A DNA stretch of 64,000 bases, taken from positions 20,457 to 84,456 of the forward strand of contig CAVYSK010000001.1 of assembly GCA_963771155.1 (NCBI GenBank). Reading direction: 5' to 3'. Below, in pieces: positions 28,907 to 39,999 of the stretch. Below the pieces are notes generated by a model, which made no database searches, was not told the origin of the DNA, and saw nothing but the letters and a program-made list of their open reading frames with translations. The stretch comes from an uncultured Chloroflexia bacterium (lineage in GTDB: Bacteria; Chloroflexota; Limnocylindria; QHBO01). The position numbers and the translations under genes are program-made. How positions within the stretch are numbered: position 1 is the first letter of the stretch; each line of letters opens with the position of its first letter.

Positions 28907-29809
28907 ATGCCCGCCGGCGTCTGCATCATCGGTTCCATCAACGTCGACCTGGTCGTTGCCGCTGACCGCCTCCCGGAGCCCGGCGAGACCGTGCTGGGCG
29001 GGCGCTTCGCAACCCACGATGGCGGCAAGGGTGCGAACCAGGCCGTGGCGGCGGCACGCGCGGGCGCCCGGGTCGTGATGATCGGCGCCGTCGGTCATGA
29101 CGCATACGGGCAACGCGCCCTCGCCGCACTCGAGTCAGAGGGCGTCGACGTGTCCGGCATTCGCCAGGTCGAGGCCGAGCCGACGGGCGTCGCGATCATC
29201 GCCGTCGGCCCGCGGGGCGAGAACCAGATCGTCGTCGCACCGGGCGCCAATGCAACCCTGGAGCTCGATGAGGCCGATCGCTCCCGCGTCGCGGATGCGG
29301 CGGTCGTGCTCACGAACCACGAGGTGCCGAACGAGGTGGTCGTTGCGGCGCTCACGGTCGCCCAACGGGCCGGAGCGACCGCGATCCTCAATCCTGCCCC
29401 GGCACGCGCCCTACCAGCCGACGTGCTCCGACTGGGACCGATCCTCACGCCGAATGAGCACGAGCTCGTTGTCGCCATCGGGAATGACGAGACCGATGCG
29501 GCCCTGGACGAGCTGGTCGCTCGCCACGCCGGGCCGATCGTGGTCACCCAGGGGCCGGCCGGCGCCTTGCTGGCACACGGCGACCGGCGCGAGCGCTACC
29601 CCGGGCGGGTCCCGCCCGGGCTGATCGATACGACCGGGGCCGGTGACACGTTCAACGGCGTGCTCGCCGCCTGGCTGGCGTCCGGCGCGGCGCTCGAGGC
29701 CGCCATCGAGGCCGCCAATGCCGCCGCGGCCCTATCGGTCGCGGCGGCAGGGGCGCGGGGCGGCATGCCGACCCGCGAGGCGATCGAGACCTACCTCGCG
29801 GACGGCTGA
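28907..29809 (+). CDS. rbsK: Ribokinase
   Basis: GSINVDLV, GGKGANQAVAAAR, LNPAP, DTTGAGDTF. Confidence 0.9.
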   Translation: MPAGVCIIGSINVDLVVAADRLPEPGETVLGGRFATHDGGKGANQAVAAARAGARVVMIGAVGHDAYGQRALAALESEGVDVSGIRQVEAEPTGVAIIAVGPRGENQIVVAPGANATLELDEADRSRVADAAVVLTNHEVPNEVVVAALTVAQRAGATAILNPAPARALPADVLRLGPILTPNEHELVVAIGNDETDAALDELVARHAGPIVVTQGPAGALLAHGDRRERYPGRVPPGLIDTTGAGDTFNGVLAAWLASGAALEAAIEAANAAAALSVAAAGARGGMPTREAIETYLADG

Positions 29810-29820
29810 CGCCGCATCGG

Positions 29821-30288
29821 CTACCCGATGGCCTTCGCCTTGAGGGCCTGGAACTCCTCTTCGGTGATCGTCCCCGCCGCGCGCAGCTGCTCCAGCTTTG
29901 CGATCTGGTCGGCCGGCGTCACCTGGGCCGCGGCCGAGTAGGCCGCCTCCGCCCGGGTCATCTGCTCGATGTCGCTGGCGGTGACCTTCGGGCGAGCGAT
30001 GATGTAGATCAGCGCGCCGAGGAACGGCAGGATCACCAGCAGGAAGATCCACCCGGCCTTGCCCCCTCCGGACAGGTCACCTCGCCGGAAGATGTCGCCG
30101 AACAGCGAGATGAAGATCCAGATGAACATGAACCAGAAGAAGAAGATGATCATCGACCAGACCACGTCCCAGAACGTGAGCGAGGCCGATCCGACGTCCG
30201 CGCATCCTGCGAGCAGCAGCGCCACGAGGGCGAGTGCCGGCAGGGCGCGCCGCGCCGGCGGGACGCGAAGAGACGCGAGAGCTGTCAT
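29821..30288 (-). CDS. PLDc_N + SHOCT domain membrane protein
   Basis: FGDIFRRGDLSGGGKAGW..PFLGALIY; GTITEEEFQALKAK. Confidence 0.88.
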   Translation of the reverse strand: MTALASLRVPPARRALPALALVALLLAGCADVGSASLTFWDVVWSMIIFFFWFMFIWIFISLFGDIFRRGDLSGGGKAGWIFLLVILPFLGALIYIIARPKVTASDIEQMTRAEAAYSAAAQVTPADQIAKLEQLRAAGTITEEEFQALKAKAIG

Positions 30289-30588
30289 GGGCTTTCCTCC
30301 GAAGTATTCGAACCGCGCTGGTCGCTAGGGCGGCAGAGCCCTGCGCCAGCCAACGGACACATCATCGCATCCCGTGCGATCCGGGATCGGCGGTCTGTCG
30401 GCCTTCCCTGATACGACCGCGATTGCGCGGCTGGATGCCGACGGCCGGATCAGCTGTGCCCGTTGTGGTCTGGATCACCGGAGTCCGGGGCAAATTGGGC
30501 CTTCGAGGCCTCGACGGCCACCGCGACGTCAATGATTAACGATAGAACCTGCAGTTCGGCGGGTCAGGTGCCTAACGCCGGGCCGAGA

Positions 30589-30672
30589 CCAGCCGTTCCT
30601 ACCTACGGCCCGGGTCGTGGGTTGGAACCGACACGGTTCCAGGGCAGCCCCACGATCCGGGTCGTCGGCTGG
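30589..30672 (+). ncRNA. Candidate structured RNA / 5' leader
   Basis: Nested stems of 7 bp, 17 bp (two G-U pairs) and 8 bp. Confidence 0.45.
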
Positions 30673-30727
30673 GGCGGCACGCATGTTGCTGCAACTCTGC
30701 GCACGAGTCACACAAGGTGGTACACCG

Positions 30728-30904
30728 ATGCGAGCCGTCGACTGTCCCTGCGGCGAATTCTTGGAGGCGCGGAGCGACGCGGACCTGCTCGAAGTTGCCA
30801 AGCAGCACTCGGATGAGGCGCACCCAGGCCGCTACTCGGAGACCGAGCTGCGGATCCTGATCAACACCACGGCCTACAACTCTGCTCGGGCGGCGAGCGG
30901 CTAG
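30728..30904 (+). CDS. DUF1059-like small metal-binding protein
   Basis: MRAVDCPCGEFLEARSDADLLEVAKQHSDEAHP. Confidence 0.7.
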   Translation: MRAVDCPCGEFLEARSDADLLEVAKQHSDEAHPGRYSETELRILINTTAYNSARAASG

Positions 30905-30972
30905 GGTCCACCCGCAGCCAGAGCGATCGACGCTGCAGCCGGTCTAGCCACGCCCAACAGGAGTGGGTAGCC

Positions 30973-31176
30973 CTACGCGGCGGCCTCGCATGCCACGCAC
31001 GCGCCATCCGCAGGTCGCGTGCTGACGATCGGTCCGTCGGGGGTGAAGACGTGCCCGCACGCCGCGTGAACCTGCGCGGGCGGCGCATCCGCTTCAGGGT
31101 TCGGGGGCGTCTGCACGCGATGCCAGTGGAAGTCCGCGGTCGAGCGTGCGTACCCAAATGTCGAACTGAATGCCAT
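30973..31176 (-). CDS. Small hypothetical protein with Cys/His motif
   Basis: HWH..AACGH..CVAC. Confidence 0.5.
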   Translation of the reverse strand: MAFSSTFGYARSTADFHWHRVQTPPNPEADAPPAQVHAACGHVFTPDGPIVSTRPADGACVACEAAA

Positions 31177-31292
31177 GTCGCGAGCATACCTGAGGGATTC
31201 GCGAACGGCACATGTTCGCGGCATCGTCGCCATCGGATCGACAGACGAAGACTCCCGTATGGGGGTCATCACTTGTGCGCAGGACGGGAGTT

Positions 31293-31338
31293 TGGTGGGC
31301 GACACTGGACTCGAACCAGTGACCTCTTGCATGTCAAG
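31293..31338 (-). repeat. 46-bp duplication of tRNA-Val 3' half (att site)
   Basis: Identical to 37563-37608 (TGGTGGGCGACACTGGACTCGAACCAGTGACCTCTTGCATGTCAAG). Confidence 0.93.
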
Positions 31339-31591
31339 TATCGCCATGCCAGCGCAGTGGCGTGAGCGCGGGGATCGTAGCGAAATCGGCCTTGTTATGG
31401 CGGTGTGCCTCGGGCGCTTGACCTCTTGATCCCGGCTAAGCAGTCAGAGCGCATCAGGCAGTGAAGACGGGGCCGCCTGCACGCTACCGATCACCCACCC
31501 CTCCGCCAGCGTGCGGGAATGTCACCCCGAAGACCGAGAGCTACCCAGGCGCCCGTGTGGGACAGTGCTTGGGAGCAAACGGAGGTTCTCC

Positions 31592-31984
31592 ATGCAGACC
31601 CGCTCGTTCCCCCTCACCTCCGATGCCCGCTCCCCTGCAGGGGCAGAGATCCGGTACCTGATGGAAGGCGAGACCGGCAACATGATCCACTCCACCGTCC
31701 CGCCAGGTCAGGTGAATCGGGCGACCGTCCACGCCACGGTCAGCGAGTTCTGGCACGTTCTCTCGGGCGAGGGGCAGATCTGGCGACGAGACGGCGCAGG
31801 TGAAGAGACAACCGTTCTGGAATCAGGCGTTTCCATCGACATTCCGGTCGGGACCGCATTCCAGTATCGCTGCACCGGTGTCGACCCGCTCCAGTTCCTC
31901 TGCATCAGCATGCCGCGCTGGCCCGGCGACAAGGAGGCGACGGTCATCGAGGGGCCCTGGAAAGCGACTGCTCCCGAAGGTTGA
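31592..31984 (+). CDS. Cupin domain protein
   Basis: SPAGAEIRYL, HATVSEFWHVLSGEGQIWR, IPVGTAFQYR; GGAGG RBS. Confidence 0.85.
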   Translation: MQTRSFPLTSDARSPAGAEIRYLMEGETGNMIHSTVPPGQVNRATVHATVSEFWHVLSGEGQIWRRDGAGEETTVLESGVSIDIPVGTAFQYRCTGVDPLQFLCISMPRWPGDKEATVIEGPWKATAPEG

Positions 31985-32024
31985 CGCCGGAGGTTGGCCA
32001 GCTGGATCTGGCGGCTATCGCGAC

Positions 32025-32900
32025 CTAATTGCTGATGTGCTCCTCGGGCACGACGATGAACGTCGTGTCCGCCACGCCCTCAGCGTACGGTCCAGCATTC
32101 GGCAGGCAACAGAGGGTGAAAGCGCCCGGGCGAGCCAGGTGGCTGCTCCGGGCGAACCCGAGGATTTCGCCCGCGTCATCGAACGCGATGACTGCGGCGA
32201 TCGCCACGTCATCCCCATCCCATTGAGCGATCGCATGGACGAGGATCGAACCATCCCCGACGCCCTCAAACCCGCGGGGCGTGACGGTTGCCTGCCACGC
32301 TGGGGGTCCATTGGCCGCGACCGACTGGGGAGCGAAGTCGACCAGCATCACGTCCTCGGCCGAGGCGGCCGACGGTTCGCCGGCAGCGAGGTAGTAGCCG
32401 ATCTGGCCGGGTGCCAGGCGTCGTGGGAAGCCGCTGAACCGAAGGCCGTCCTCGTCCGACACGATCACACCCGACGAGCTCTGCAGAGTACCGCGGAGCG
32501 AGGCTCCCAGCTGGGGGTCATTCAGGAAGACCCAGTCGTCGCCTGTATTGCGCACTTCCACGACCACCTGCACGCCACCGCCCGCATCGTCCACGACCTT
32601 GGTGCGCAGGACTTCCAACGGCCCGTCGCGCGTGTCCAAGGGACTCGGCTGCGACTCGACCAGCGAAGGCAGGCGCACCAGTCCGCTCCCGATCGCGATT
32701 GCAGACCCAAGCATCGCGACGAGGAGCAGGATCGCGGCAAGGAGAACCACCAGCCCGCCGGGGACTCGCCGACCCTCCCCGCTACCGATGCGAGGAGCGA
32801 GCCGGCCGACGGCAGACTCGAGCGATGACGCTGCGAGAGCGGCTCGCCGACTCTCGTCATCGAGGAATGCGCCCAGTCGGTCGTCGAAGTTGCCGGTCAT
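32025..32900 (-). CDS. Membrane-anchored protein, putative anti-sigma factor
   Basis: Overlaps stop of ECF sigma (ATGA); short N-terminal helix, one TM, extracellular domain. Confidence 0.6.
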   Translation of the reverse strand: MTGNFDDRLGAFLDDESRRAALAASSLESAVGRLAPRIGSGEGRRVPGGLVVLLAAILLLVAMLGSAIAIGSGLVRLPSLVESQPSPLDTRDGPLEVLRTKVVDDAGGGVQVVVEVRNTGDDWVFLNDPQLGASLRGTLQSSSGVIVSDEDGLRFSGFPRRLAPGQIGYYLAAGEPSAASAEDVMLVDFAPQSVAANGPPAWQATVTPRGFEGVGDGSILVHAIAQWDGDDVAIAAVIAFDDAGEILGFARSSHLARPGAFTLCCLPNAGPYAEGVADTTFIVVPEEHISN

Positions 32901-33454
32901 GACTCGTCCTCCCCGAGATCCGCCTTAAGCCGTTGGCGGGCCAACCGCAGGCGAGAGCGCGTCGTCTCGAGCGCCGCGCCCATGAGCTCGGCCGTCTCGG
33001 CGATCGAGTAGCCGAGATGAAGGTGGAGCACACAGGCAGCCCTCTGTTCAACTGCCAGCGCCCCGAAGGCGGCACTCAATGCGATGCGCTCCGCGGTCAT
33101 CTCTGGCGAAGGGTCCGCGAGCAGTTGCCCCTCTTCGTCGGTCGCGCGCGAGGACAGCCGCGTCCACCATGGGCGCCGGTTCATGCGGATCGCTTCGCGA
33201 ACGACGATCCGGTCGAGCCACGCACGCATCCGACCTCGGTCGACCAGCGAGGCGCGTCGGCGCCACGCCTGTTCCATCGCCGCCTGGACGGCATCCTCCG
33301 CGGGTACTCCGACATGGCAGATCAGGGCGGCGAGTCCCGTCATCCGCTCGTAGTGCGAACCGAAGAAGTCCGCCAGTTGATCTTCGAGGCTCGGCGCCTC
33401 ACCCGCGACGAGCTCGGTCGGGGTTGCCGGCATTGGCTCGATTCTCCTACCCAT
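32897..33454 (-). CDS. ECF RNA polymerase sigma factor
   Basis: AEDAVQAA, AWLDRIVVREAI, QRAACVLH..GYSIAETAELMG..TTRSRL. Confidence 0.88.
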   Translation of the reverse strand: MGRRIEPMPATPTELVAGEAPSLEDQLADFFGSHYERMTGLAALICHVGVPAEDAVQAAMEQAWRRRASLVDRGRMRAWLDRIVVREAIRMNRRPWWTRLSSRATDEEGQLLADPSPEMTAERIALSAAFGALAVEQRAACVLHLHLGYSIAETAELMGAALETTRSRLRLARQRLKADLGEDES

Positions 33455-33561
33455 CAAGGAGATAGAACCCCAGCGCGAGGGTAACGGGTCAACATTGACA
33501 TCTCGTTGCAGCAAGGCGAGAGCGAGCGGATCATTGCCCGGTCGGATCGGTGGGCAACAGA

Positions 33562-33654
33562 AGCCGCCGCTATCCCGAATTGCTGATCCGTCCCGCGAGC
33601 AGGGCGGCCTACGCTGGACGGCAGGCGTAGTCTGGAGGTTCTAGTCGCGTCGGT
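33562..33654 (+). repeat. Palindromic island repeat copy 1 (right arm degenerate)
   Basis: AGCCGCCGCTATCCCGAATTGCTGATCCGTCCCGCGAGCAGGGCGG. Confidence 0.8.
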
Positions 33655-33671
33655 CACGTGGGAGGTGAGGC

Positions 33672-34139
33672 TTGCTCATCTTCAAGGCGCTCCACGTCCT
33701 GTCGATGTTCGGAGCAGTGACGCTGCTGGTTGGCGAGGCGCTGATCTACGCCCGCGCTGTTTGGCGAAGTGACGTTCCGGGGCTCGCCGGCGCCCATCGT
33801 CTGGTGGGCGGCAGACCGGTGATCGGTGCTGCACTCCTCATGGCGGGCATCGTCTTTGGTCTGCTGACCGCTTTGACCGGAGGTTTCAACTTCCTCGCGG
33901 GCTGGCTGATCGCGGCCTACGTTCTCGTGGTGGCGCTGCTTGCGCTCAACGCCTCGCCCTGGGTTCAGCGACTGCCCCGGCTTGGCGCTGAGGCGGCCGA
34001 CGCCGAAGCGGGACGACGACCACCGGAAGATGTCATCGCCGCGATGGTCGCGATCCGGAACAGCACGATGATCGTCGTGGGCCTGAATGTGGTGCTGTTC
34101 GTGGCGATCATCCTCGACATGGTCCTCAAGCCGTTCTGA
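33672..34139 (+). CDS. DUF2269-like membrane protein
   Basis: FKALHVLS, GWLIAAYVL, ends DMVLKPF; GGAGG RBS. Confidence 0.8.
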   Translation: MLIFKALHVLSMFGAVTLLVGEALIYARAVWRSDVPGLAGAHRLVGGRPVIGAALLMAGIVFGLLTALTGGFNFLAGWLIAAYVLVVALLALNASPWVQRLPRLGAEAADAEAGRRPPEDVIAAMVAIRNSTMIVVGLNVVLFVAIILDMVLKPF

Positions 34140-34166
34140 AGGAGGGCCATGTGGCGGGCATAGCGA

Positions 34167-34241
34167 AGCCGCCGCTTCCCGACTTGCCGATCCGTTCCGC
34201 TAGCAGGGCGGTCGCAGACGTTGCCGGGCTTCGCGGCGGCT
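34167..34241 (+). repeat. Palindromic island repeat copy 2 (full)
   Basis: AGCCGCCGCTTCCCGACTTGCCGATCCG...CGGGCTTCGCGGCGGCT. Confidence 0.88.
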
Positions 34242-34285
34242 CCGCTGTACCGTGAGGCACCAAGACCGAGTTAGCAGGTGTCCAC

Positions 34286-34384
34286 TTGCCTGATCCGTGG
34301 GTGTGGTTCACGGCCGCCGTACTGGCGGCAATCATCGTGGTCGTAAGGAGCGCTCTGAGCTGGTTTGACAGGCGGCGACGGTAA
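34286..34384 (+). CDS. Putative small single-TM peptide (start uncertain)
   Basis: LPDPWVWFTAAVLAAIIVVVRSALSWFDRRRR*. Confidence 0.4.
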   Translation: MPDPWVWFTAAVLAAIIVVVRSALSWFDRRRR

Positions 34385-34393
34385 GGACGCGGA

Positions 34394-34408
34394 AGCCGCC
34401 GCTACTCG
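34394..34408 (+). repeat. Palindromic island repeat copy 3 (left arm only)
   Basis: AGCCGCCGCTACTCG. Confidence 0.55.
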
Positions 34409-34427
34409 GGCGCGAGGCTCATCGTGC

Positions 34428-34875
34428 CTAGCGGCGCCCTCGAAAGGCGAGGAGCGACGTGAGCACCAACAGCAAAGCGGCGAGCCCGACGAGGAGGAGC
34501 TGCCAGGCGGCGGGCGAGGCGACATCTTGGCCCGCTCCCGAGCCGGGAGGCCGCCAAGCGGCCGCGACCGCAGAGGTGGTCATCCCGCTGCCGTCGCCGA
34601 ACTCGATGCAGAGCATGCGCGCCATTCTCGGTCCGCTGGGACGCTGATCGGCCGTGACCCAGATCATGCCGACGCGGTTGGCATCAGGCGTCGAGAGGTC
34701 CGACAAGCCAAGGGCCGCCATTGAGGTAGTGCCGACGTAGGCGTACGCATCCGCCACGCACTCTGGAAAGGGCGGTACCGCGGCGTCGGCCGCGTCGAAC
34801 GGCGCCCGGAACTGCGACGGCGCAGCCGCCGAGCGCGGCGGCGAGGAGGCCGGCGAGGAGGACTCGCATGGTCAT
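34428..34875 (-). CDS. Hypothetical lipoprotein-like protein with C-terminal TM (frameshifted)
   Basis: MTMRVLLAGLLAAALGGC; C-terminal WQLLLVGLAALLLVLTSLLAFRGRR. Confidence 0.55.
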
Positions 34876-34905
34876 CTTCCGCCGACTGTCTAGACGCACA
34901 CACGA

Positions 34906-34978
34906 AGCCGCCGCTATCCCGACTTGCCGAACCGTCCCGCTAGCGCTCAGGAGGCGGGTAATGGGCTTCGCGGCGGCT
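34906..34978 (+). repeat. Palindromic island repeat copy 4 (full)
   Basis: AGCCGCCGCTATCCCGACTTGCCGAACCG...GGGCTTCGCGGCGGCT. Confidence 0.88.
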
Positions 34979-35001
34979 CGAGCGTTAGGGCGGAGGTGTC
35001 T

Positions 35002-35256
35002 TCAGGTCTGAGCGAAACAGGCAGCCAGATCGCCGTGGAACTCCGCGACGTGGCTATAGACATTGGCCCCCGCCGGTCGCGAGTTGTGCGCGAAGTCCTG
35101 GGCCACCGCCGAGCGATGGGTCCCGCCGCCACCGTGCGCGAAGAAGGACGAGAACTGGCCCACGCAGCCAGCGCTGTCACTTATCGCTAGTGCGGACGCC
35201 GCACTTGCGAGCATGAGGGCTGTTGCCAACAGGATTGCCGCGAGCGTCTTTCGCAT
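35002..35256 (-). CDS. Small secreted protein with two Cys
   Basis: Signal peptide MRKTLAAILLATALMLASAASALA; GGGGAG RBS. Confidence 0.7.
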   Translation of the reverse strand: MRKTLAAILLATALMLASAASALAISDSAGCVGQFSSFFAHGGGGTHRSAVAQDFAHNSRPAGANVYSHVAEFHGDLAACFAQT

Positions 35257-35401
35257 GGCTCGAACTCCCCTACGCAGGCGGGTCGGGTTCGCCAGTGGCT
35301 CGACGCGGTCCCGGCGGCCATGACTGTAGGGCCGCGCGTCAGCGCCTCCCGTCTCTTCGTGTCGGCAACTTATTCCCACAGGTCAAGCAGGCAAGCACCA
35401 G

Positions 35402-35454
35402 AGCCGCCGCTATCCCGACGCACCCTCCCCACCGAACAATCCGGGCTATCGCGG
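35402..35454 (+). repeat. Palindromic island repeat copy 5 (short variant)
   Basis: AGCCGCCGCTATCCCGACGCAC...CGGGCTATCGCGG. Confidence 0.75.
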
Positions 35455-35489
35455 AGTGTGGTGTAGCCAGGCGGGACTATCCTCGTCGC

Positions 35490-35951
35490 ATGGATGCGTC
35501 CCCGAGCGCAACCGGTGCAGCTGGCATCGAAATCATGAATCAGATGATCGATCGGTGTCTGACGGCGATCGACGCGCTGGACCGCAAGCTCGCCCTTGTC
35601 CCCGCTGCACTCGGTGTTCTCGCGGCGCTCCTGCTACCCGATCCACTGCGCCATCCGGTTCAGTTGCAGCTTGCCGCCGGCGGCGGTGTTCTAAGTGTCG
35701 TGGCAGTCGGCTTCGCGCTCTTGGGGCTCTCAGGACGTCAGGTGAGTGTCGGACCGGACCCGGCAGGACTCACGGCTCGTTTCGGTGACACGCTCGAGCA
35801 GTTCTATGTCGACGTTGCTGGGGCATTGACCGTGACCCTGGAGGGACTGCGAGACTCCACGGCCGAGAAAGCCTGGCATCTCAACATAGCGCTCGTCGCC
35901 TCGTCCGCCGCAATGCTCCTGTTTTTGAGCGCCCGCCTGCTAGCTCTCTAA
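35490..35951 (+). CDS. 3-TM membrane protein, layout reminiscent of Pycsar-effector-like proteins
   Basis: IDALDRKL + 2 TM + GPDP loop + helix + EKAWHL + TM. Confidence 0.6.
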   Translation: MDASPSATGAAGIEIMNQMIDRCLTAIDALDRKLALVPAALGVLAALLLPDPLRHPVQLQLAAGGGVLSVVAVGFALLGLSGRQVSVGPDPAGLTARFGDTLEQFYVDVAGALTVTLEGLRDSTAEKAWHLNIALVASSAAMLLFLSARLLAL

Positions 35952-35972
35952 TCGAACGAGGAGGAAGCGAGA

Positions 35973-36083
35973 ATGCCACCCGAGCCGAAGGAGAAACCGA
36001 AGCCGACTCTTGGTCCCAAACGCCCGCCACTCGAGACCTTCACCATCACACGTCACAAGCCCTTGAAGCCCAAGACTCATTAG
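35973..36083 (+). CDS. 36-aa Pro/Lys-rich peptide
   Basis: GAGGAGG RBS; MPPEPKEKPKPTLGPKRPPLETFTITRHKPLKPKTH*. Confidence 0.55.
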   Translation: MPPEPKEKPKPTLGPKRPPLETFTITRHKPLKPKTH

Positions 36084-36146
36084 TCGTGGCGACCTTCGCC
36101 GACGGCAAGATCATCGGCCTTAGCGAGCCTTACACCCCTTAGGGAG

Positions 36147-36220
36147 AGCCGCCGCTATCCCGACTTGCCGATCACCCCGTTAGCAGGGCGGCCGGAGACG
36201 TTGCCGGGATTCGCGGCGGT
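36147..36220 (+). repeat. Palindromic island repeat copy 6 (full)
   Basis: AGCCGCCGCTATCCCGACTTGCCGATC...CGGGATTCGCGGCGGT. Confidence 0.88.
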
Positions 36221-36256
36221 CGGACCGGAGTTGGTCAGAGACCCCTTGTCGAGCGG

Positions 36257-36703
36257 CTACTTCTTCGCTTCCTCGACGTAGGGTCTACGCCAGTCCGCCG
36301 CTTAAGGGCGCAAAGTAGGAGTCTCGCGCCAGATCTTGCCATCCCGCACGATGACTAGGCCAACGAAGTGCCACAGCCCGCCGTCCGCGTAGGTCACGGT
36401 GCCCGTCACCGTGAACTCGTCGCCGGACCCCGTCAGGTGCACAACCGACCAAGCCGGCCAGCTTGAGCGCGGGACGAACTGGTCGTCGGTGCCGGTAATG
36501 TGGCCGACCGATGGCCGGATGACCGCTTCCTCTCTAGCCGGATACCCCTCGAGAACGGCTCTGCGGTTCGTCCTGCCTCGGATGTGCTCGCCCGATTGCG
36601 GGTAGTGGAGGACATAGTCGTCGTGAACCAGGGCATCCTGTGTGTCGAAATCATCGACCGAGGTCGCCTGCGCGTAGCGCTCGACCAGCTGGCGGTTGCC
36701 CAT
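36257..36703 (-). CDS. SnoaL-like / NTF2 family protein (premature stop near 3' end; error or pseudogene)
   Basis: HDDYVLHYPQSGEHIRGR, VRDGKIWRET; AADWRRPYVE continues after TAA at 36302. Confidence 0.78.
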
Positions 36704-36761
36704 GTGTCCGCCAGTCTACCGACGGGGGCAAGCCAGCAGGAAGGCGGGCCGCGACGGATGC

Positions 36762-36837
36762 GGGCCGCTATCCCGACGCACGTCCCCGGTCCCCTAGGCC
36801 CCCCGACGGACTACTTGCCCAGCTTCGCGGCGGCCCG
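36762..36837 (+). repeat. Palindromic island repeat copy 7
   Basis: GGGCCGCTATCCCGACGCAC...GCTTCGCGGCGGCCC. Confidence 0.75.
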
Positions 36838-37105
36838 GAAGCGAGGTTGCTTACGCGGCGTTTACCGCACCCTTGCTACGGTGCGGACGAGCCGGCGGTT
36901 CAGCTGCGTTCCCCCCGCAGTCGGTCCGCCGGCTCATTCGTTCCCCCCGAGTGCCGACTGGAAGTGCACCGAACGTGCCGTGGTGAGGCGTTGGGCGGAC
37001 ACTAGGCGGGAGCCGCACTGCCTGCTTGACAGCGGTGCGTATAGTCACCATCCGGCTCGTGCCCCGACAAGCCTGCCGCCGTAGGTGCCCAGTTGGGAAC
37101 GGGTC

Positions 37106-37201
37106 ATGGAACTCCTGGTCTTGCGCCAAGCGGCGATGCTGTTGCTCTTGTTCGCACTCATTGCGCTGACCTTCGTGGTGATGCGCGTGACCCAGCGATG
37201 A
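37106..37201 (+). CDS. 31-aa hydrophobic peptide
   Basis: MELLVLRQAAMLLLLFALIALTFVVMRVTQR*; stop overlaps next start (ATGA). Confidence 0.5.
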   Translation: MELLVLRQAAMLLLLFALIALTFVVMRVTQR

Positions 37202-37419
37202 CCCTCCGAACGCTGCGGCTGGAGTGTGCCGACTTCTGGGTCGAGGTCCGCCTGGCCACTTTCGACGGTCGCTGGATGGCCTCCGCCGACACGCCAGACG
37301 GTCCGAGTCTGGGGCTGGGTTGGCAGCCGCTCGAGGCGTTGGAGATTGCGCTCGATCCATTCGACTGCGTGGTCCCCGAACTGCTCGGCAGCCTGCCTGA
37401 CGTGCTGTATTGGCGCTAA
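37198..37419 (+). CDS. Small hypothetical protein
   Basis: MTLRTLRLECADFWVEVRLATFDGRWMASADTPDGPSLGLG. Confidence 0.65.
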   Translation: MTLRTLRLECADFWVEVRLATFDGRWMASADTPDGPSLGLGWQPLEALEIALDPFDCVVPELLGSLPDVLYWR

Positions 37420-37486
37420 CTCGCCTGTACCCAATACTTGCTCCATGGCAGGAAAGGGACTGACCGAAGCATGGCGTGGGGCGATG

Positions 37487-37520
37487 GCCGCCAAGCCGTC
37501 CGACTGGACGGCTTGGCGGC
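37487..37520. terminator. Strong hairpin between tRNA 3' end and converging small ORF
   Basis: Perfect 15-bp stem GCCGCCAAGCCGTCC/GGACGGCTTGGCGGC; no U-tract. Confidence 0.6.
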
Positions 37521-37562
37521 GTCGTGTGCGGACCGCGAGAGGTCGTGCTCAAAAGCGTGTTG

Positions 37563-37639
37563 TGGTGGGCGACACTGGACTCGAACCAGTGACCTCTTGC
37601 ATGTCAAGCAAGTGCTCTAACCAGCTGAGCTAGCCGCCC
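37563..37639 (-). tRNA. tRNA-Val(GAC)
   Basis: GGGCGGCTAGCTCAGCTGGTTAGAGCACTTGCTTGACATGCAAGAGGTCACTGGTTCGAGTCCAGTGTCGCCCACCA; cloverleaf, anticodon GAC, CCA end. Confidence 0.97.
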
Positions 37640-37712
37640 AGGAGCAGGTCGCGATCGTATCAGACCTCCTCGCTGAGCGCGAACCCCGACACATGGTCCA
37701 TTGCGCTCGTTG

Positions 37713-38846
37713 TCACGACTTCGCGAGCGATGCCTCGAAGAGCTCCCAGCTCCCAGGCACACCTCGCAGGACGACCGAACCGAGTGGGGCGAAGGCAAGA
37801 TCCGTCCCGGTGGCGAGGTCGCGCACCGTCCGCGTGACGAGGATCTGGCCCGAAGATGCCGTGCCGAGTACCCGGGCGGCAATGTGGACGCCGATGCCCC
37901 CGATGCCGTCCTCGTGGCGCTCGACTTCGCCGGTGTGAATGCCGGCCCGAATGTCGATGTCCAGCTCGCGCAGCGCGGTTAACAGATCGAACGCGCACTG
38001 CAGCGCGCGGGTCGGGGTATCGAAGGTGGCCATGGCGCCATCGCCGGTGAATGCGAGGTGCTGGCCCATCCACCGGCTCACCTGGGTGCGAACGATCTCG
38101 TGGTGGCGGTCCAGCAGCTTGCGCCAGGCGCGGTCCCCGATCGTGGCCGCCCGCCCCGTGGAGTCCACGACATCGGTGAACAAGATGGTGGCAAGGATTC
38201 GTTCGACGTCTTCGGCCGCCTGGAGCGAGCGCACCTGCTCGTCCGTCCACGAGAACTCCTCGACATACGGACCCGTGGGGATCTCGTGCTCCGGCTGGTA
38301 CGTCAGCAGCACGACGCCCGAGCTGAAGGTCCGCGAACCAACGAGGCGAAGGTGGTGGGTGTCGATCCGATCGCCGAAGAGCCGCTTCCCGCTGCCCAGG
38401 ATCACCGGGTAGACCAGCAGCCGGTACTCGTCGACGAGGTCGTGCGTCAGCAGCTCGTCGACCAGCGTGGGGCTTCCGTAGACCAGCAGGTCTCCGCCGG
38501 TCCGCGACTTCAGATCGGCGACATGGCTGGCGACCTCGCCCGAGATGATCGTCGAGTTGTTCCAGGCAGCGCGCTTCAGCGAGTTGGACACGACGTACTT
38601 CGGAATGCTGTTCACGCGCTCGGCCAGGTCACCGGTGACAGTCGGCCAGAAGGCAGCCCAGGTCTGCCATGTCCGACGACCGAGCAGGAAGGCATCCGCG
38701 GAGGCGACCTGCGCCGTGTTGAAGGCCTCGTCTTCCTCCTGCTGCACGCGCAGAGCCCACGCATTGCGTCCATCCCGGTGCTCGTCGAAGCCGGGGGCCT
38801 CGACGATGCCATCGACGGTCACGAACGCGGTGACGACCAGCCTCAC
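37713..38846 (-). CDS. RibD_C/DHFR-like domain fused to class III nucleotide cyclase domain
   Basis: VTVDGIVEAP, LLGRRTW, YGSPTLV, YPVILGSGKRLF; then LFTDVVDST, TGDG, RAGIHTGE, VHIAARV, LRGVPG. Confidence 0.88.
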   Translation of the reverse strand: MRLVVTAFVTVDGIVEAPGFDEHRDGRNAWALRVQQEEDEAFNTAQVASADAFLLGRRTWQTWAAFWPTVTGDLAERVNSIPKYVVSNSLKRAAWNNSTIISGEVASHVADLKSRTGGDLLVYGSPTLVDELLTHDLVDEYRLLVYPVILGSGKRLFGDRIDTHHLRLVGSRTFSSGVVLLTYQPEHEIPTGPYVEEFSWTDEQVRSLQAAEDVERILATILFTDVVDSTGRAATIGDRAWRKLLDRHHEIVRTQVSRWMGQHLAFTGDGAMATFDTPTRALQCAFDLLTALRELDIDIRAGIHTGEVERHEDGIGGIGVHIAARVLGTASSGQILVTRTVRDLATGTDLAFAPLGSVVLRGVPGSWELFEASLAKS

Positions 38847-38940
38847 TGAGCAAGACTACCCAACCCGCAGCGCCGGGCCCACGCCTTCCACGCTTGCTCA
38901 GCGCCGCTGCACAGGTGGGCGGATCCCACGTTAGGTCAGT

Positions 38941-39999
38941 TCAGCCGAACGTGAAGCAATACACCTCAACGCCGGCGCCCAGGAACTCGATCTCGAATCG
39001 GCGCTCCATGATCGGGCCAGGCTGACGAATCAGCTGGTAGGTGCGCTGCTCGGTCAGGCTCCCGCGGCCATCGGGTCCGACATCGGTCCCATGAGCGCCC
39101 TCGGCGATCTCGCCGTCGAGGAAGACCCGGAACCCGATGGCGTCGCTCTTCGACGCCGGTCCCATCACCAGGTTGACGTCACGAGCGTGAAACTCGATGG
39201 CGACGCGTCCGCCGGGCTCGCTCAGGATCGAGGCGTGACCGGCCACGTTCCAGGATCCGGAGAGGTCCCAGTGATTCAGGGGTAGCTGCCCCGCGGAAGC
39301 GTACGCGTGGGTCTCGTCGAACCTCGCGACGCCCGCCGAGGCGAAGCCGACGCTCTGGCGGTGGCCGAGATACGTCTCCGGCGATCGCACCGACCGCCAG
39401 TCGGCGGCGAGTTCCAGGCCGCGAGGCTCGACGTCGACCAGGTCCTCGCCGATGGCATCGGCGCCGGATTCGAGCAGGAGCTGCTGGATCGCCATCTCCG
39501 TCATGGCGTACTCGCCCTCGCCGAAGTGGTGGTACCGAATGCGCCCATCCGCGTCGGCGAGGTAGACCGCCGGCCAGTAGTGGTTGGCGAAGGCGGTCCA
39601 CACGCCGTACTCGCTGTCGACCGCGATCGGGTAGACGACGCCCAGCGCGCGCGATTGGGCCACGACGTTGTCGATGTCTCGTTCGAAGCCGAACTCGGGC
39701 GTATGGACCCCGACCACCGTCAGCCCGTTGTCGCCGTACGTCGTGGCCCACGCGCGAACGTACGGCAGGGTCCGCAGCCAGTTGACGCAGGTGTAGGTCC
39801 AGAAGTCGACGAGGACGACGCGTCCGCCAAGGGCGTCGGGCGTCAATGGCTCGGAGTTGAGCCACCCGGTTGCCCCTTCGAACGACGCCAGCCGTCCCTC
39901 GACCGGCAGGACAGGCTCGTCACCGGCGAGCCGATGGGCGACCGAGCGGATCAGGCTGGGTCGCTCAGGACGCGCGGGATCCGTGTTGTTGTCGCGCAT
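38941..39999 (-). CDS. DipZ-like thioredoxin/redoxin protein
   Basis: DFWTYTCVNW, GVHTPEF, NHYWPA, HHFGEG, SPETYLG, YCFTFG. Confidence 0.9.
   Translation of the reverse strand: MRDNNTDPARPERPSLIRSVAHRLAGDEPVLPVEGRLASFEGATGWLNSEPLTPDALGGRVVLVDFWTYTCVNWLRTLPYVRAWATTYGDNGLTVVGVHTPEFGFERDIDNVVAQSRALGVVYPIAVDSEYGVWTAFANHYWPAVYLADADGRIRYHHFGEGEYAMTEMAIQQLLLESGADAIGEDLVDVEPRGLELAADWRSVRSPETYLGHRQSVGFASAGVARFDETHAYASAGQLPLNHWDLSGSWNVAGHASILSEPGGRVAIEFHARDVNLVMGPASKSDAIGFRVFLDGEIAEGAHGTDVGPDGRGSLTEQRTYQLIRQPGPIMERRFEIEFLGAGVEVYCFTFG

Follow-up and report, generated by a model that had tools for sequence, protein, structure and literature searches.

The 64,000-nucleotide stretch of DNA analyzed here (hereafter the window) corresponds to G000:C1:20457-84456, where G000 is the genome of an uncultured Chloroflexia bacterium. 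It carries seven copies of a palindromic repeat, which we named R1, all on the + strand and all within 3.3 kb (33.5-36.9 kb of the window). We propose that R1 is a lineage-specific hairpin which, in one family of Limnocylindria, would delimit the accessory modules, of one gene each, that make up plasticity islands. It would act as a portable hairpin at the 3' end of genes and double as a recombination point for the exchange of modules, a reading that we give about an even chance of being correct. Lying tens of bases past a stop codon, R1 would end or insulate the transcription of each self-promoted module, and the near-identical GC-rich arms that bracket the modules would make the repeats the places where modules are gained, lost, duplicated or swapped, between arrays, loci and species. 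Such swapping would build integron-like arrays, mostly just 3' of tRNA genes. The G000 assembly amounts to 2.9 Mb in 19 contigs, with 70% G+C and 88% completeness. All genomes compared are metagenome-assembled genomes (MAGs) that are 54-96% complete, and the loci mapped in G000 and in related genomes are designated by L-numbers.

To describe the repeat, a covariance model was built from 35 copies found in G000 and its relatives. The R1 model comprises 89 positions and 23 base pairs. RNAalifold run on a MAFFT alignment gave only five outer pairs, with the centre types out of register; the structure was therefore written by hand, and the copies were then realigned with the model. A first, sequence-only reading of the window had described a repeat of ~75 bp starting at 33562, 34167, 34394, 34906, 35402, 36147 and 36762, in one orientation. 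The model recovered all seven copies on the + strand, four of them full (46-74 bits) and three partial (18-28 bits):

33555..33662, +, copy 1, partial: left arm and left half of the centre, without right arm (R1, 28.1 bits)
34160..34248, +, copy 2, full, centre type A (R1, 74.3 bits)
34387..34446, +, copy 3, of which only ~14 nt of the left arm are recognisable (R1, 18.3 bits)
34899..34985, +, copy 4, full, a chimera whose centre has a left half of type A and a right half of type B (R1, 72.8 bits)
35395..35466, +, copy 5, partial: left arm and weak right arm (R1, 22.4 bits)
36140..36228, +, copy 6, full, centre type A (R1, 64.4 bits)
36755..36842, +, copy 7, full but diverged, with a fourth centre type (R1, 45.9 bits)

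The copy at 34394 had been singled out as a lone left arm. This is the case, but the copies at 33562 and 35402 also lack a proper right arm, so that three copies rather than one are incomplete. The element is also longer than the ~75 bp proposed at first: outside the 89 positions of the model, flanks of the form GCAT.../...ATGC prolong the palindrome to ~105-115 nt, and these flanks often hold the stop codon of the adjoining gene. Across G000, R1 matches 10 places at E<=0.01, five of which lie in the 3.3-kb stretch of the window, the two weakest window copies being under that cut. Because half of the genome-wide places fall in this one array, the clustering is not due to chance. Three other full copies were found in G000, at C15:19365-19453, C8:128794-128880 and C12:199388-199474. 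The earlier statement that full copies are absent outside the island is thus correct within the window, where other matches have E values of ~0.9, but not for the genome. No covariance model of Rfam 15 matches R1, and a search of positions 33400-37000 at E<=1 returned a c-di-GMP-II-GCG riboswitch only. A tRNA origin of the repeat was considered, as its centre contains a D-arm-like TAGCTCAG, and was dropped, since neither ARAGORN nor the Rfam tRNA model (E<=1) calls the repeats.

Full copies of R1 fold into a hairpin with a 9-bp outer stem of G and C, three additional pairs past a bulged A, and an asymmetric internal loop of 3/4 nt. These are followed by a 4-bp inner stem, a 3-bp stem and a 5-bp apical stem, whose apical loop contains a conserved CTAG. 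Among 37 R1 copies, paired cells reached 85.9%, versus 80.7% in column shuffles (none of 500 shuffles attained the observed value) and 41-48% in slid registers. Compensatory changes were found in the apical stem, from UA to GC in 12 cells and from CG to AU, UA or GC in 11. The layout predicted from the letters alone (outer stem, asymmetric internal loop, inner stem, variable centre) is therefore supported. The centres belong to at least four sequence types, with mosaics among types; in copy 4 of the window, two types are joined at the conserved central CTAG. The arms place 21-22 identical, GC-rich bases on each side of each module. The two strands differ in stability: RNA folds of the reverse strand have energies of -44.1, -38.7 and -45.6 kcal/mol, versus -36.1, -36.1 and -36.8 kcal/mol for the forward strand, with z-scores of -2.7 to -4.2 and -1.0 to -1.9, respectively. 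The reverse strand also gives the better DNA fold in all four R1 copies compared.

The position of R1 relative to genes was evaluated on the 42 strong copies that have a gene at most 400 nt away on either side. A gene's 3' end is turned towards the right arm in 34 of these copies and towards the left arm in 17, with a median of 34 nt between the repeat and the facing 3' end; these numbers are approximate, as genes were called by a simple rule based on G+C at third codon positions (GC3). Usually, the right arm abuts the stop codon of a gene. Of the 44 mapped R1 loci, 12 are located on the 3' side of a tRNA gene for Val-GAC, Cys-GCA, Leu-CAA or Ser-TGA, no more than ~2.5 kb from it, and the remaining 32 are away from tRNAs. 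R1 is oriented opposite to the tRNA in all 12 cases, which represent ~4 orthologous loci and hence are not independent. Given these orientations, the sense strand of the upstream gene or tRNA is the strand on which the hairpin is more stable. R1 thus has the features of a terminator that consist of a GC-rich hairpin on the sense strand shortly after a stop codon. Because the gene-sense strand folds more stably and the orientation after the stop codon is fixed, R1 probably ends or insulates transcription, a role suggested by its position, orientation and fold. A terminator-like role was absent from the sequence-only reading, and the position and orientation of R1 speak in its favour.

We then assessed how R1 is distributed. 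The repeat is confined to one family (f1) of Limnocylindria, in the Chloroflexota. In an order-level sample, 28 of 151 genomes contain R1, and all of them belong to f1: it was detected in 23 of 49 genomes of genus g1 and in 4 genomes of 4 other genera, one of which is the unpublished G102. G117, from another genus of f1, carries an array of four copies. Within the genus, 34 of 63 genomes have an R1 match, with 1-16 matches per genome, a count that takes in the unpublished genomes G047 and G048. Exact 17-mer scans of the repeat were too unspecific, and their matches were re-scored with R1. The model confirmed none of nine viral loci sharing a 17-mer and, among the matches listed, four of 80 loci of genome_contigs, all four titled Limnocylindria or "Chloroflexia" MAG. 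Blastn searches of plasmid and phage collections gave no match to the repeat plus a module. We found no published description of this repeat, or of such arrays in Limnocylindria, in a literature search that did not cover supplements.

In the published genomes of the genus, 64 of 123 R1 matches (52%) form 24 clusters (gaps <=3 kb), with a median spacing of 794 bp, and 23 of these clusters have a single orientation. Inside clusters, nearly every intergenic gap holds one R1 copy, whereas thousands of gaps elsewhere hold none. Examples of mapped arrays are L062 of G012 (seven copies), L063 of G010:C6 (eight) and L065 of G010:C4 (six). Building the model and scanning the genome and its relatives, as the sequence-only reading had suggested, thus revealed a real and clustered family rather than copies scattered evenly among housekeeping genes. 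As in integrons, same-orientation sites lie within a few kb of each other with open reading frames (ORFs) between them, both in the window (seven copies in 3.3 kb) and in the 24 clusters of the genus. Solo copies beside housekeeping genes also occur, such as those near nusA and after groEL.

These solo copies bear on another explanation, which we consider distinctly unlikely. R1 could be a selfish, non-autonomous element, similar to miniature inverted-repeat transposable elements (MITEs) or repetitive extragenic palindromic (REP) elements, that piles up in tolerant tRNA-linked islands, the cassette-like appearance and the exchange being by-products. Its arms would then be terminal inverted repeats. 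R1 is strictly intergenic, its spread is patchy in the genus and sporadic in the four other genera, and many copies are decayed or reduced to one half. Its ends give stop codons to adjoining ORFs, and one gene has an R1 copy in G000 (C15) and none in G008. However, no trace of target-site duplication was found: a 7-mer is shared across the ends in 0 of 37 copies, and a 5-mer in 4 of 37 versus 9.2 expected from shuffled partners. The Y1_Tnp domain (PF01797) of RAYT (REP-associated tyrosine transposase) and IS200 proteins is absent from G000, G010, G075, G024, G073 and G020, and serine recombinases (Resolvase) gave no match in G000 or in five array-rich genomes. These searches covered the Y1 and serine families, and a helper of another kind (DDE or IS110) may exist. 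The number of copies is very low compared with the hundreds known for REPs, half of the copies stand in tight single-orientation arrays with other gaps left empty, and the orientation of R1 is fixed relative to gene 3' ends and tRNAs. A locally clustered REP or MITE family, which had been offered as an alternative from the outset, is weakened by the same findings (no RAYT, no target-site duplication, low copy number and fixed orientation).

The proposed role of R1 in module exchange comes from comparisons between loci and species. The module of the window that contains a riboswitch and a peptide gene (34963-35411) is 97% identical to L091 10303-10748, located in the rseP-nusA hot spot of G008, another species. 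The identity runs from the right arm of copy 4 to just past the left arm of copy 5, and the centres of the adjoining repeats are unrelated. In the housekeeping flanks of this G008 locus, the identity to G000 is no more than 81% on one side and 87% on the other, and the contrast with the 97% of the module points to a recent transfer between species. The same module is present in G010 (L066), with 89% identity. Its c-di-GMP-II-GCG aptamer was also detected with Rfam in L079 (7953-8039) and L091 (10356-10442), and by similarity in L062 and L082. Homologues of the transmembrane-peptide module lie between other repeats in two arrays of G010 (L065 1288-1455 and L064 13326-13480), DUF2243 genes adjoin repeats at three different loci, and secreted "AAAKP" proteins (~190-230 aa) and small lipoproteins recur in several arrays with different neighbours. 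For the transmembrane-peptide, DUF2243, "AAAKP" and lipoprotein modules, the orientation relative to R1 is kept within each family across arrays. Overall, the cargo of arrays includes SnoaL, GNAT, ACT, LuxR and DUF2243 proteins and small secreted or membrane proteins.

Repeats also coincide with the limits of homology. The two copies of a module duplicated in G010 (L063/L066) are 95% identical over 818 bp, up to the border of the following repeat, and their 3' ends carry repeats of different centre types, B in one copy and A in the other. At the tRNA-Val locus, each of the five species examined (window, L069, L079, L082 and L090) has a different set of genes, so that relatives do not share one gene order there. 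Where repeat-bounded modules turn up again, elsewhere in a genome or in another species, their homology stops within the repeats. The cassette-like interpretation has thus withstood both conditions under which the sequence-only reading would have dropped it. Within repeats, the homology of shared segments ends at offsets 0, 8-11, 16-17, 20-24, 35, 41, 53, 62 and 65-67. As the arms are identical in all copies, the repeats would be the places where modules recombine, and the alignments are consistent with exchange through recombination between repeats. The agent of exchange would preferably be host homologous recombination, because the breakpoints vary and the repeat centres are mosaics, with a trans-acting site-specific enzyme as the alternative. 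A search of the genus with 3 kb around the solo copy of C15 found the three parts of this locus unlinked elsewhere, with no clean pair of filled and empty sites. Logan contigs from four public runs (shares <=0.13) were short, of low depth and broken at repeats, and were uninformative on joints or circles.

Several observations weigh against R1 being an exchangeable 3'-end hairpin. Identical arms of 21-22 nt are short for RecA-dependent exchange, and homologous recombination leaves unexplained how unrelated genes first acquired an R1 copy. Several left-arm-only copies break after the same few bases (window 34394, C8 by tRNA-Ser, and L091 10303), and such a uniform break is more suggestive of a fixed cut site than of homologous recombination. 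The glyoxalase-like gene next to the C15 copy of G000 has a homologue in G008 where R1 gives no match. Regarding transcription, a scan for terminators made of a stem plus a T-run flagged no R1 copy: the repeat lacks a T-run, and its tail is only UUCCGUAU-like. In addition, tRNAs adjoining arrays have short hairpins of their own, located before R1. R1 is thus not simply "the" terminator, and a role as the tRNA's own terminator was rejected for this reason. R1 copies contain 25 G-U and 34 A-C mismatches without clear strand bias, which lends no clear support to selection at the RNA level. Finally, mobile elements bearing an enzyme may be unbinned in MAGs.

The lone left arms and the short identical arms would be accommodated if R1 copies were the folded sites of a site-specific gene-capture system, analogous to attC sites but unrelated to them in sequence, with a recombinase acting in trans (XerC/XerD, a member of an unrecognised family, or an enzyme on unbinned mobile DNA). 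We regard this as rather unlikely. It would explain the arrays of one orientation, with one small gene per interval and a site at the gene 3' end, and a cargo like that of chromosomal cassettes. It would also fit the geometry of the fold (outer stem, asymmetric loop, short inner stem, variable centre and bulged bases) with its compensatory changes, the repeat-bounded modules common to several species and the chimera of copy 4 joined at CTAG. Copies reduced to the left half outnumber those reduced to the right half, and three lone-left-arm junctions break at nearly one base, the tRNA-Ser case resembling an insertion at a primary site. However, the 12-mer of the left arm also arises by chance in a GC-rich genome, and these junctions are hence weak evidence. 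Homology ends at many offsets within repeats instead of one position. Near-identical modules are flanked by different repeat centres, which indicates that the site is not carried by the module as it is in integron cassettes, and the modules bring along their own leaders, those of the window not all being oriented alike.

A candidate enzyme for such a system was not found either. The only tyrosine recombinases of G000 are XerC-like and XerD-like, and they are encoded far from the arrays. The integron-integrase model TIGR02249 reaches 123.8 bits versus a cut-off of 265, which both Xer-like genes miss by far, in line with the initial statement that IntI is absent. Ten other genomes contain no extra full-length tyrosine recombinase, although the MAGs of this search are 54-94% complete and MAGs often miss mobile DNA, and array-rich genomes hold the Xer pair only. 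No recombinase gene adjoins any of the mapped arrays, and the suggestion that arrays might lie near a tyrosine or serine recombinase or an HUH (RAYT) gene was not borne out in array-rich genomes. RYYYAAC/GTTRRRY boxes, whose absence had already been pointed out, and the AAC/GTT triplet were searched for within 30 nt of the ends on either strand and occur in 0 of 37 R1 copies. Of the first interpretation, the cassette-like architecture has held up, with clusters and recurring modules, but a gene-capture system acting in trans has less support, given the varied breakpoints, the mosaic centres and the lack of a candidate enzyme. In a bolder version, Limnocylindria would possess a second, independently evolved kind of integron, in which folded sites of ~90 nt stack self-expressed single-gene cassettes 3' of tRNAs, driven by a recombinase other than IntI (the Xer pair or an unrecognised family, in trans); we hold this to be unlikely.

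Some recombinase-related sequences were noted in the course of these searches. The XerD-like gene of G000 (L095; G000:C1:136300-138800) lies in two overlapping frames, 972-1790 and 890-1591, on the - strand, either through a frameshift error of the MAG or because the gene is truly disrupted. Fragments of tyrosine recombinases were identified by Pfam matches at the rseP-nusA hot spot of G012 and G046 (L241 3-365 and L244 98-484). In G008, a remnant of 41 aa (L091 6203-6328, -), cut off 20 nt from R1, presumably resembles the C-terminus of a recombinase, and it has no Pfam match. An AdnB/AddA-like helicase-nuclease beside the arrays of G012 and G046 was judged to be part of the housekeeping flank and not a dedicated enzyme.

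The array of the window is part of a larger island. The last 46 nt of tRNA-Val(GAC) (37563-37639, -) recur exactly at 31293-31338 (-), and the ~70 nt to the left of this copy (31225-31292) are homologous to the stretch that immediately follows tRNA-Val in three other species. The tRNA copy and the displaced ancestral flank therefore indicate that the array sits in a 6.2-kb insertion at tRNA-Val, which, like other tRNA-associated islands, has a tRNA gene at one border and a partial direct copy of that tRNA at the other. The presence of tRNA-Val beside the array, noted previously, was thus confirmed. No integrase was detected in the island: PF00589 has no match in the window, and the island ORFs scanned contain no Pfam recombinase domain. 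The island has a G+C content of 63-69%, versus 70% for the genome. The wider region 29750-39000 of the window has 62-69% G+C, with no confident ORF in 30289-31290. The features of the island other than the R1 copies are as follows:

31293..31338, -, direct repeat of the tRNA-Val 3' end (46 nt, exact), far border of the island
31511..31984, +, cupin-domain protein, island cargo outside the array (Pfam Cupin_2, E 4e-11)
32025..32900, -, 291-aa protein without family match, overlapping the stop of the sigma-factor gene; from its position, a possible anti-sigma partner
32897..33514, -, sigma-70 factor of the extracytoplasmic function (ECF) type (Pfam Sigma70_r2 and Sigma70_r4_2)
33672..34139, +, module 1: 155-aa hydrophobic protein without family match
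34286..34384, +, module 2: 32-aa transmembrane peptide
34428..34899, -, module 3: lipoprotein-like gene
35002..35256, -, module 4, coding part: 84-aa peptide with a signal-like N-terminus
35272..35358, -, module 4, leader: c-di-GMP-II-GCG riboswitch aptamer (Rfam RF03170, 61.2 bits versus a gathering score of 47.9)
35490..36083, +, module 5: 153-aa membrane protein (35490-35951) and 36-aa peptide (35973-36083), both without family match
36302..36703, -, module 6: SnoaL-like protein (Pfam SnoaL_2, E 6.6e-9)
37198..37419, +, 73-aa protein of an unnamed Chloroflexota family
37563..37639, -, tRNA-Val(GAC), near border of the island

The modules of the window have their own leaders and are found in both directions. 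Module 3 is split over two frames, with the signal peptide and lipobox Cys in ORF 34684-34899 and the body in ORF 34428-34757; it appears frameshifted, as a pseudogene or through an assembly error. The product of 33672-34139 had been labelled DUF2269, a family for which we found no Pfam match even at E<=10. The proposed rule of one gene per interval applies to five of the six intervals but not to 35466-36140, which has two ORFs. A perfect inverted repeat of 15 bp with a 4-nt loop (37487-37520) lies 43 nt after the 3' end of tRNA-Val and is probably this tRNA's own terminator. The 73-aa protein has relatives in islands beside tRNAs or repeats (L091 8298-8444, L082 5909-6121, L092 6458-6580 and L093 177-344) and a paralogue in G000 at C13:105099. 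It has no Pfam family, and the ESM Atlas places it in unnamed Chloroflexota clusters.

The borders of this island raise the question of whether the arrays are scars left by small tRNA-targeting islands that integrated repeatedly (tandem accretion), R1 being a conserved island end that does not act on single genes. tRNA-Val and its exact 46-nt copy bound the window island beside the ancestral flank, and partial-tRNA repeats also bound islands in L068 (47 nt), L069 (32 nt) and L079 (23 nt). R1 is often located 35-76 nt from the 3' end of a tRNA or of its duplicate, copies of the tRNA-Arg 5' half lie by repeats, the rseP-nusA hot spot of G012 and G046 contains integrase fragments, and the 41-aa integrase-like remnant of L091 adjoins a repeat. 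Moreover, arrays of tycheposons with partial tRNAs and decayed integrases are on record (10.1101/2020.12.28.424599). We nevertheless consider this explanation very unlikely. Partial tRNA copies are found at the outer borders only and not at each interval, the single-gene intervals show no trace of integration modules, and 32 of the 44 mapped loci are away from tRNAs. Single modules also move independently between arrays, and no intact island integrase was found in the 11 genomes searched.

Two observations concern other tRNA genes. Duplicated 5' halves of tRNA-Arg(TCG), extending to the anticodon loop and including the upstream flank, are 96-98% conserved between species and lie beside partial or full R1 copies:

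G000:C1:~208870-209062, tRNA-Arg(TCG) 5'-half copies
L074 6666-6832, tRNA-Arg(TCG) 5'-half copy
L076 4156-4321 and 12474-12578, tRNA-Arg(TCG) 5'-half copies

These copies suggest a second class of islands that would integrate in the anticodon loop. In addition, 8 nt separate the 3' end of tRNA-Ser(TGA) from a lone R1 left arm (G000:C8:128021-128034), and one gene (128052-128780) lies between this arm and the full R1 copy at 128794-128880.

Among systems that stack cassettes of one gene each at folded DNA sites, integrons are to our knowledge the only one that is well understood, and the creation of cassettes and the arrays devoid of integrase are open questions in that field. R1 arrays would represent a second cassette-like architecture, based on an unrelated hairpin, in a barely studied uncultured lineage from soil and freshwater. 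The genomes of this lineage are small and almost without recognisable mobile elements, and they offer sequence evidence that modules move across loci and species. If host recombination drives this exchange, a portable 3'-end hairpin alone could make ordinary genes exchangeable; if a dedicated enzyme exists, R1 would be part of a new gene-capture system. Finding c-di-GMP-II-GCG, an orphan riboswitch class, next to the gene of a small secreted peptide in a mobile module could also provide a handle on the ligand of the riboswitch and on the role of the peptide.

R1 shares some features with known families of interspersed repeats. REPs are ~20-40 nt long, number hundreds per genome, and can stabilise or terminate transcripts. 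Like REPs and bacterial interspersed mosaic elements (BIMEs), R1 is an intergenic, GC-rich imperfect palindrome located after gene 3' ends. Unlike REP/BIME-RAYT systems, it is at least 89 nt long, occurs in 1-16 copies that are arrayed and not dispersed, and is not accompanied by Y1_Tnp in the six genomes searched; R1 is not a REP/RAYT system. MITEs of the Correia or enterobacterial repetitive intergenic consensus (ERIC) type are ~100 nt long, have inverted-repeat ends, and can give stop codons and hairpins to neighbouring genes. R1 resembles them in its size, inverted-repeat ends, intergenic location, patchy distribution and contribution of stop codons, but it differs from them by the lack of target-site duplication, its very low copy number, its fixed orientation and the presence of about one copy per gap in arrays. 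In the pdif modules of Acinetobacter plasmids, small modules lie between short sites and are thought to be moved by the host XerC/XerD. R1 arrays likewise consist of bounded small modules, and the Xer pair provides the only tyrosine recombinases here. Unlike pdif sites, R1 has no evident likeness to a 28-bp dif-type site (the lineage's own dif was not determined), and its copies are in one orientation instead of alternating.

The location of the arrays recalls tycheposons, described as cargo islands that accrete at tRNAs, with partial tRNAs and decayed integrases (10.1101/2020.12.28.424599). The islands studied here are similarly variable, lie directly 3' of tRNAs in small genomes poor in mobile elements, and come with partial tRNAs and decayed integrases. 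Unlike in tycheposons as described there, the internal punctuation is a hairpin unrelated to tRNAs, present at every gene, and the window island has no integrase.

The closest architectural parallel is with integrons. According to Cury et al., attC sites consist of R and L boxes, an unpaired spacer, extrahelical bases, a variable end and a conserved AAC/GTT triplet, and half of the described clusters of attC sites lacking an integron-integrase (CALIN) are in genomes without IntI (PMC4889954). Chloroflexota are listed among the integron-bearing phyla by Ghaly et al. (PMC8618304). R1 is not an attC site: its copies lack R boxes and the AAC/GTT triplet, IntI is absent, and no sequence likeness was found between the two kinds of site. 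Unlike integron cassettes, the modules have their own leaders or promoters and face both directions in the window, the R1 site is not part of the module, as the centres differ, and the breakpoints are not at one position. The geometry of R1 is nevertheless comparable to that of attC, with a 9-12-bp outer stem containing a bulged A, an asymmetric 3/4-nt loop, a 4-bp inner stem and a variable centre, and the sites are fairly homogeneous within the lineage. As in integron arrays and CALIN, short and mostly uncharacterised genes, GNAT, SnoaL-like and small secreted proteins among their products, are each followed by an imperfect palindrome in a single orientation.

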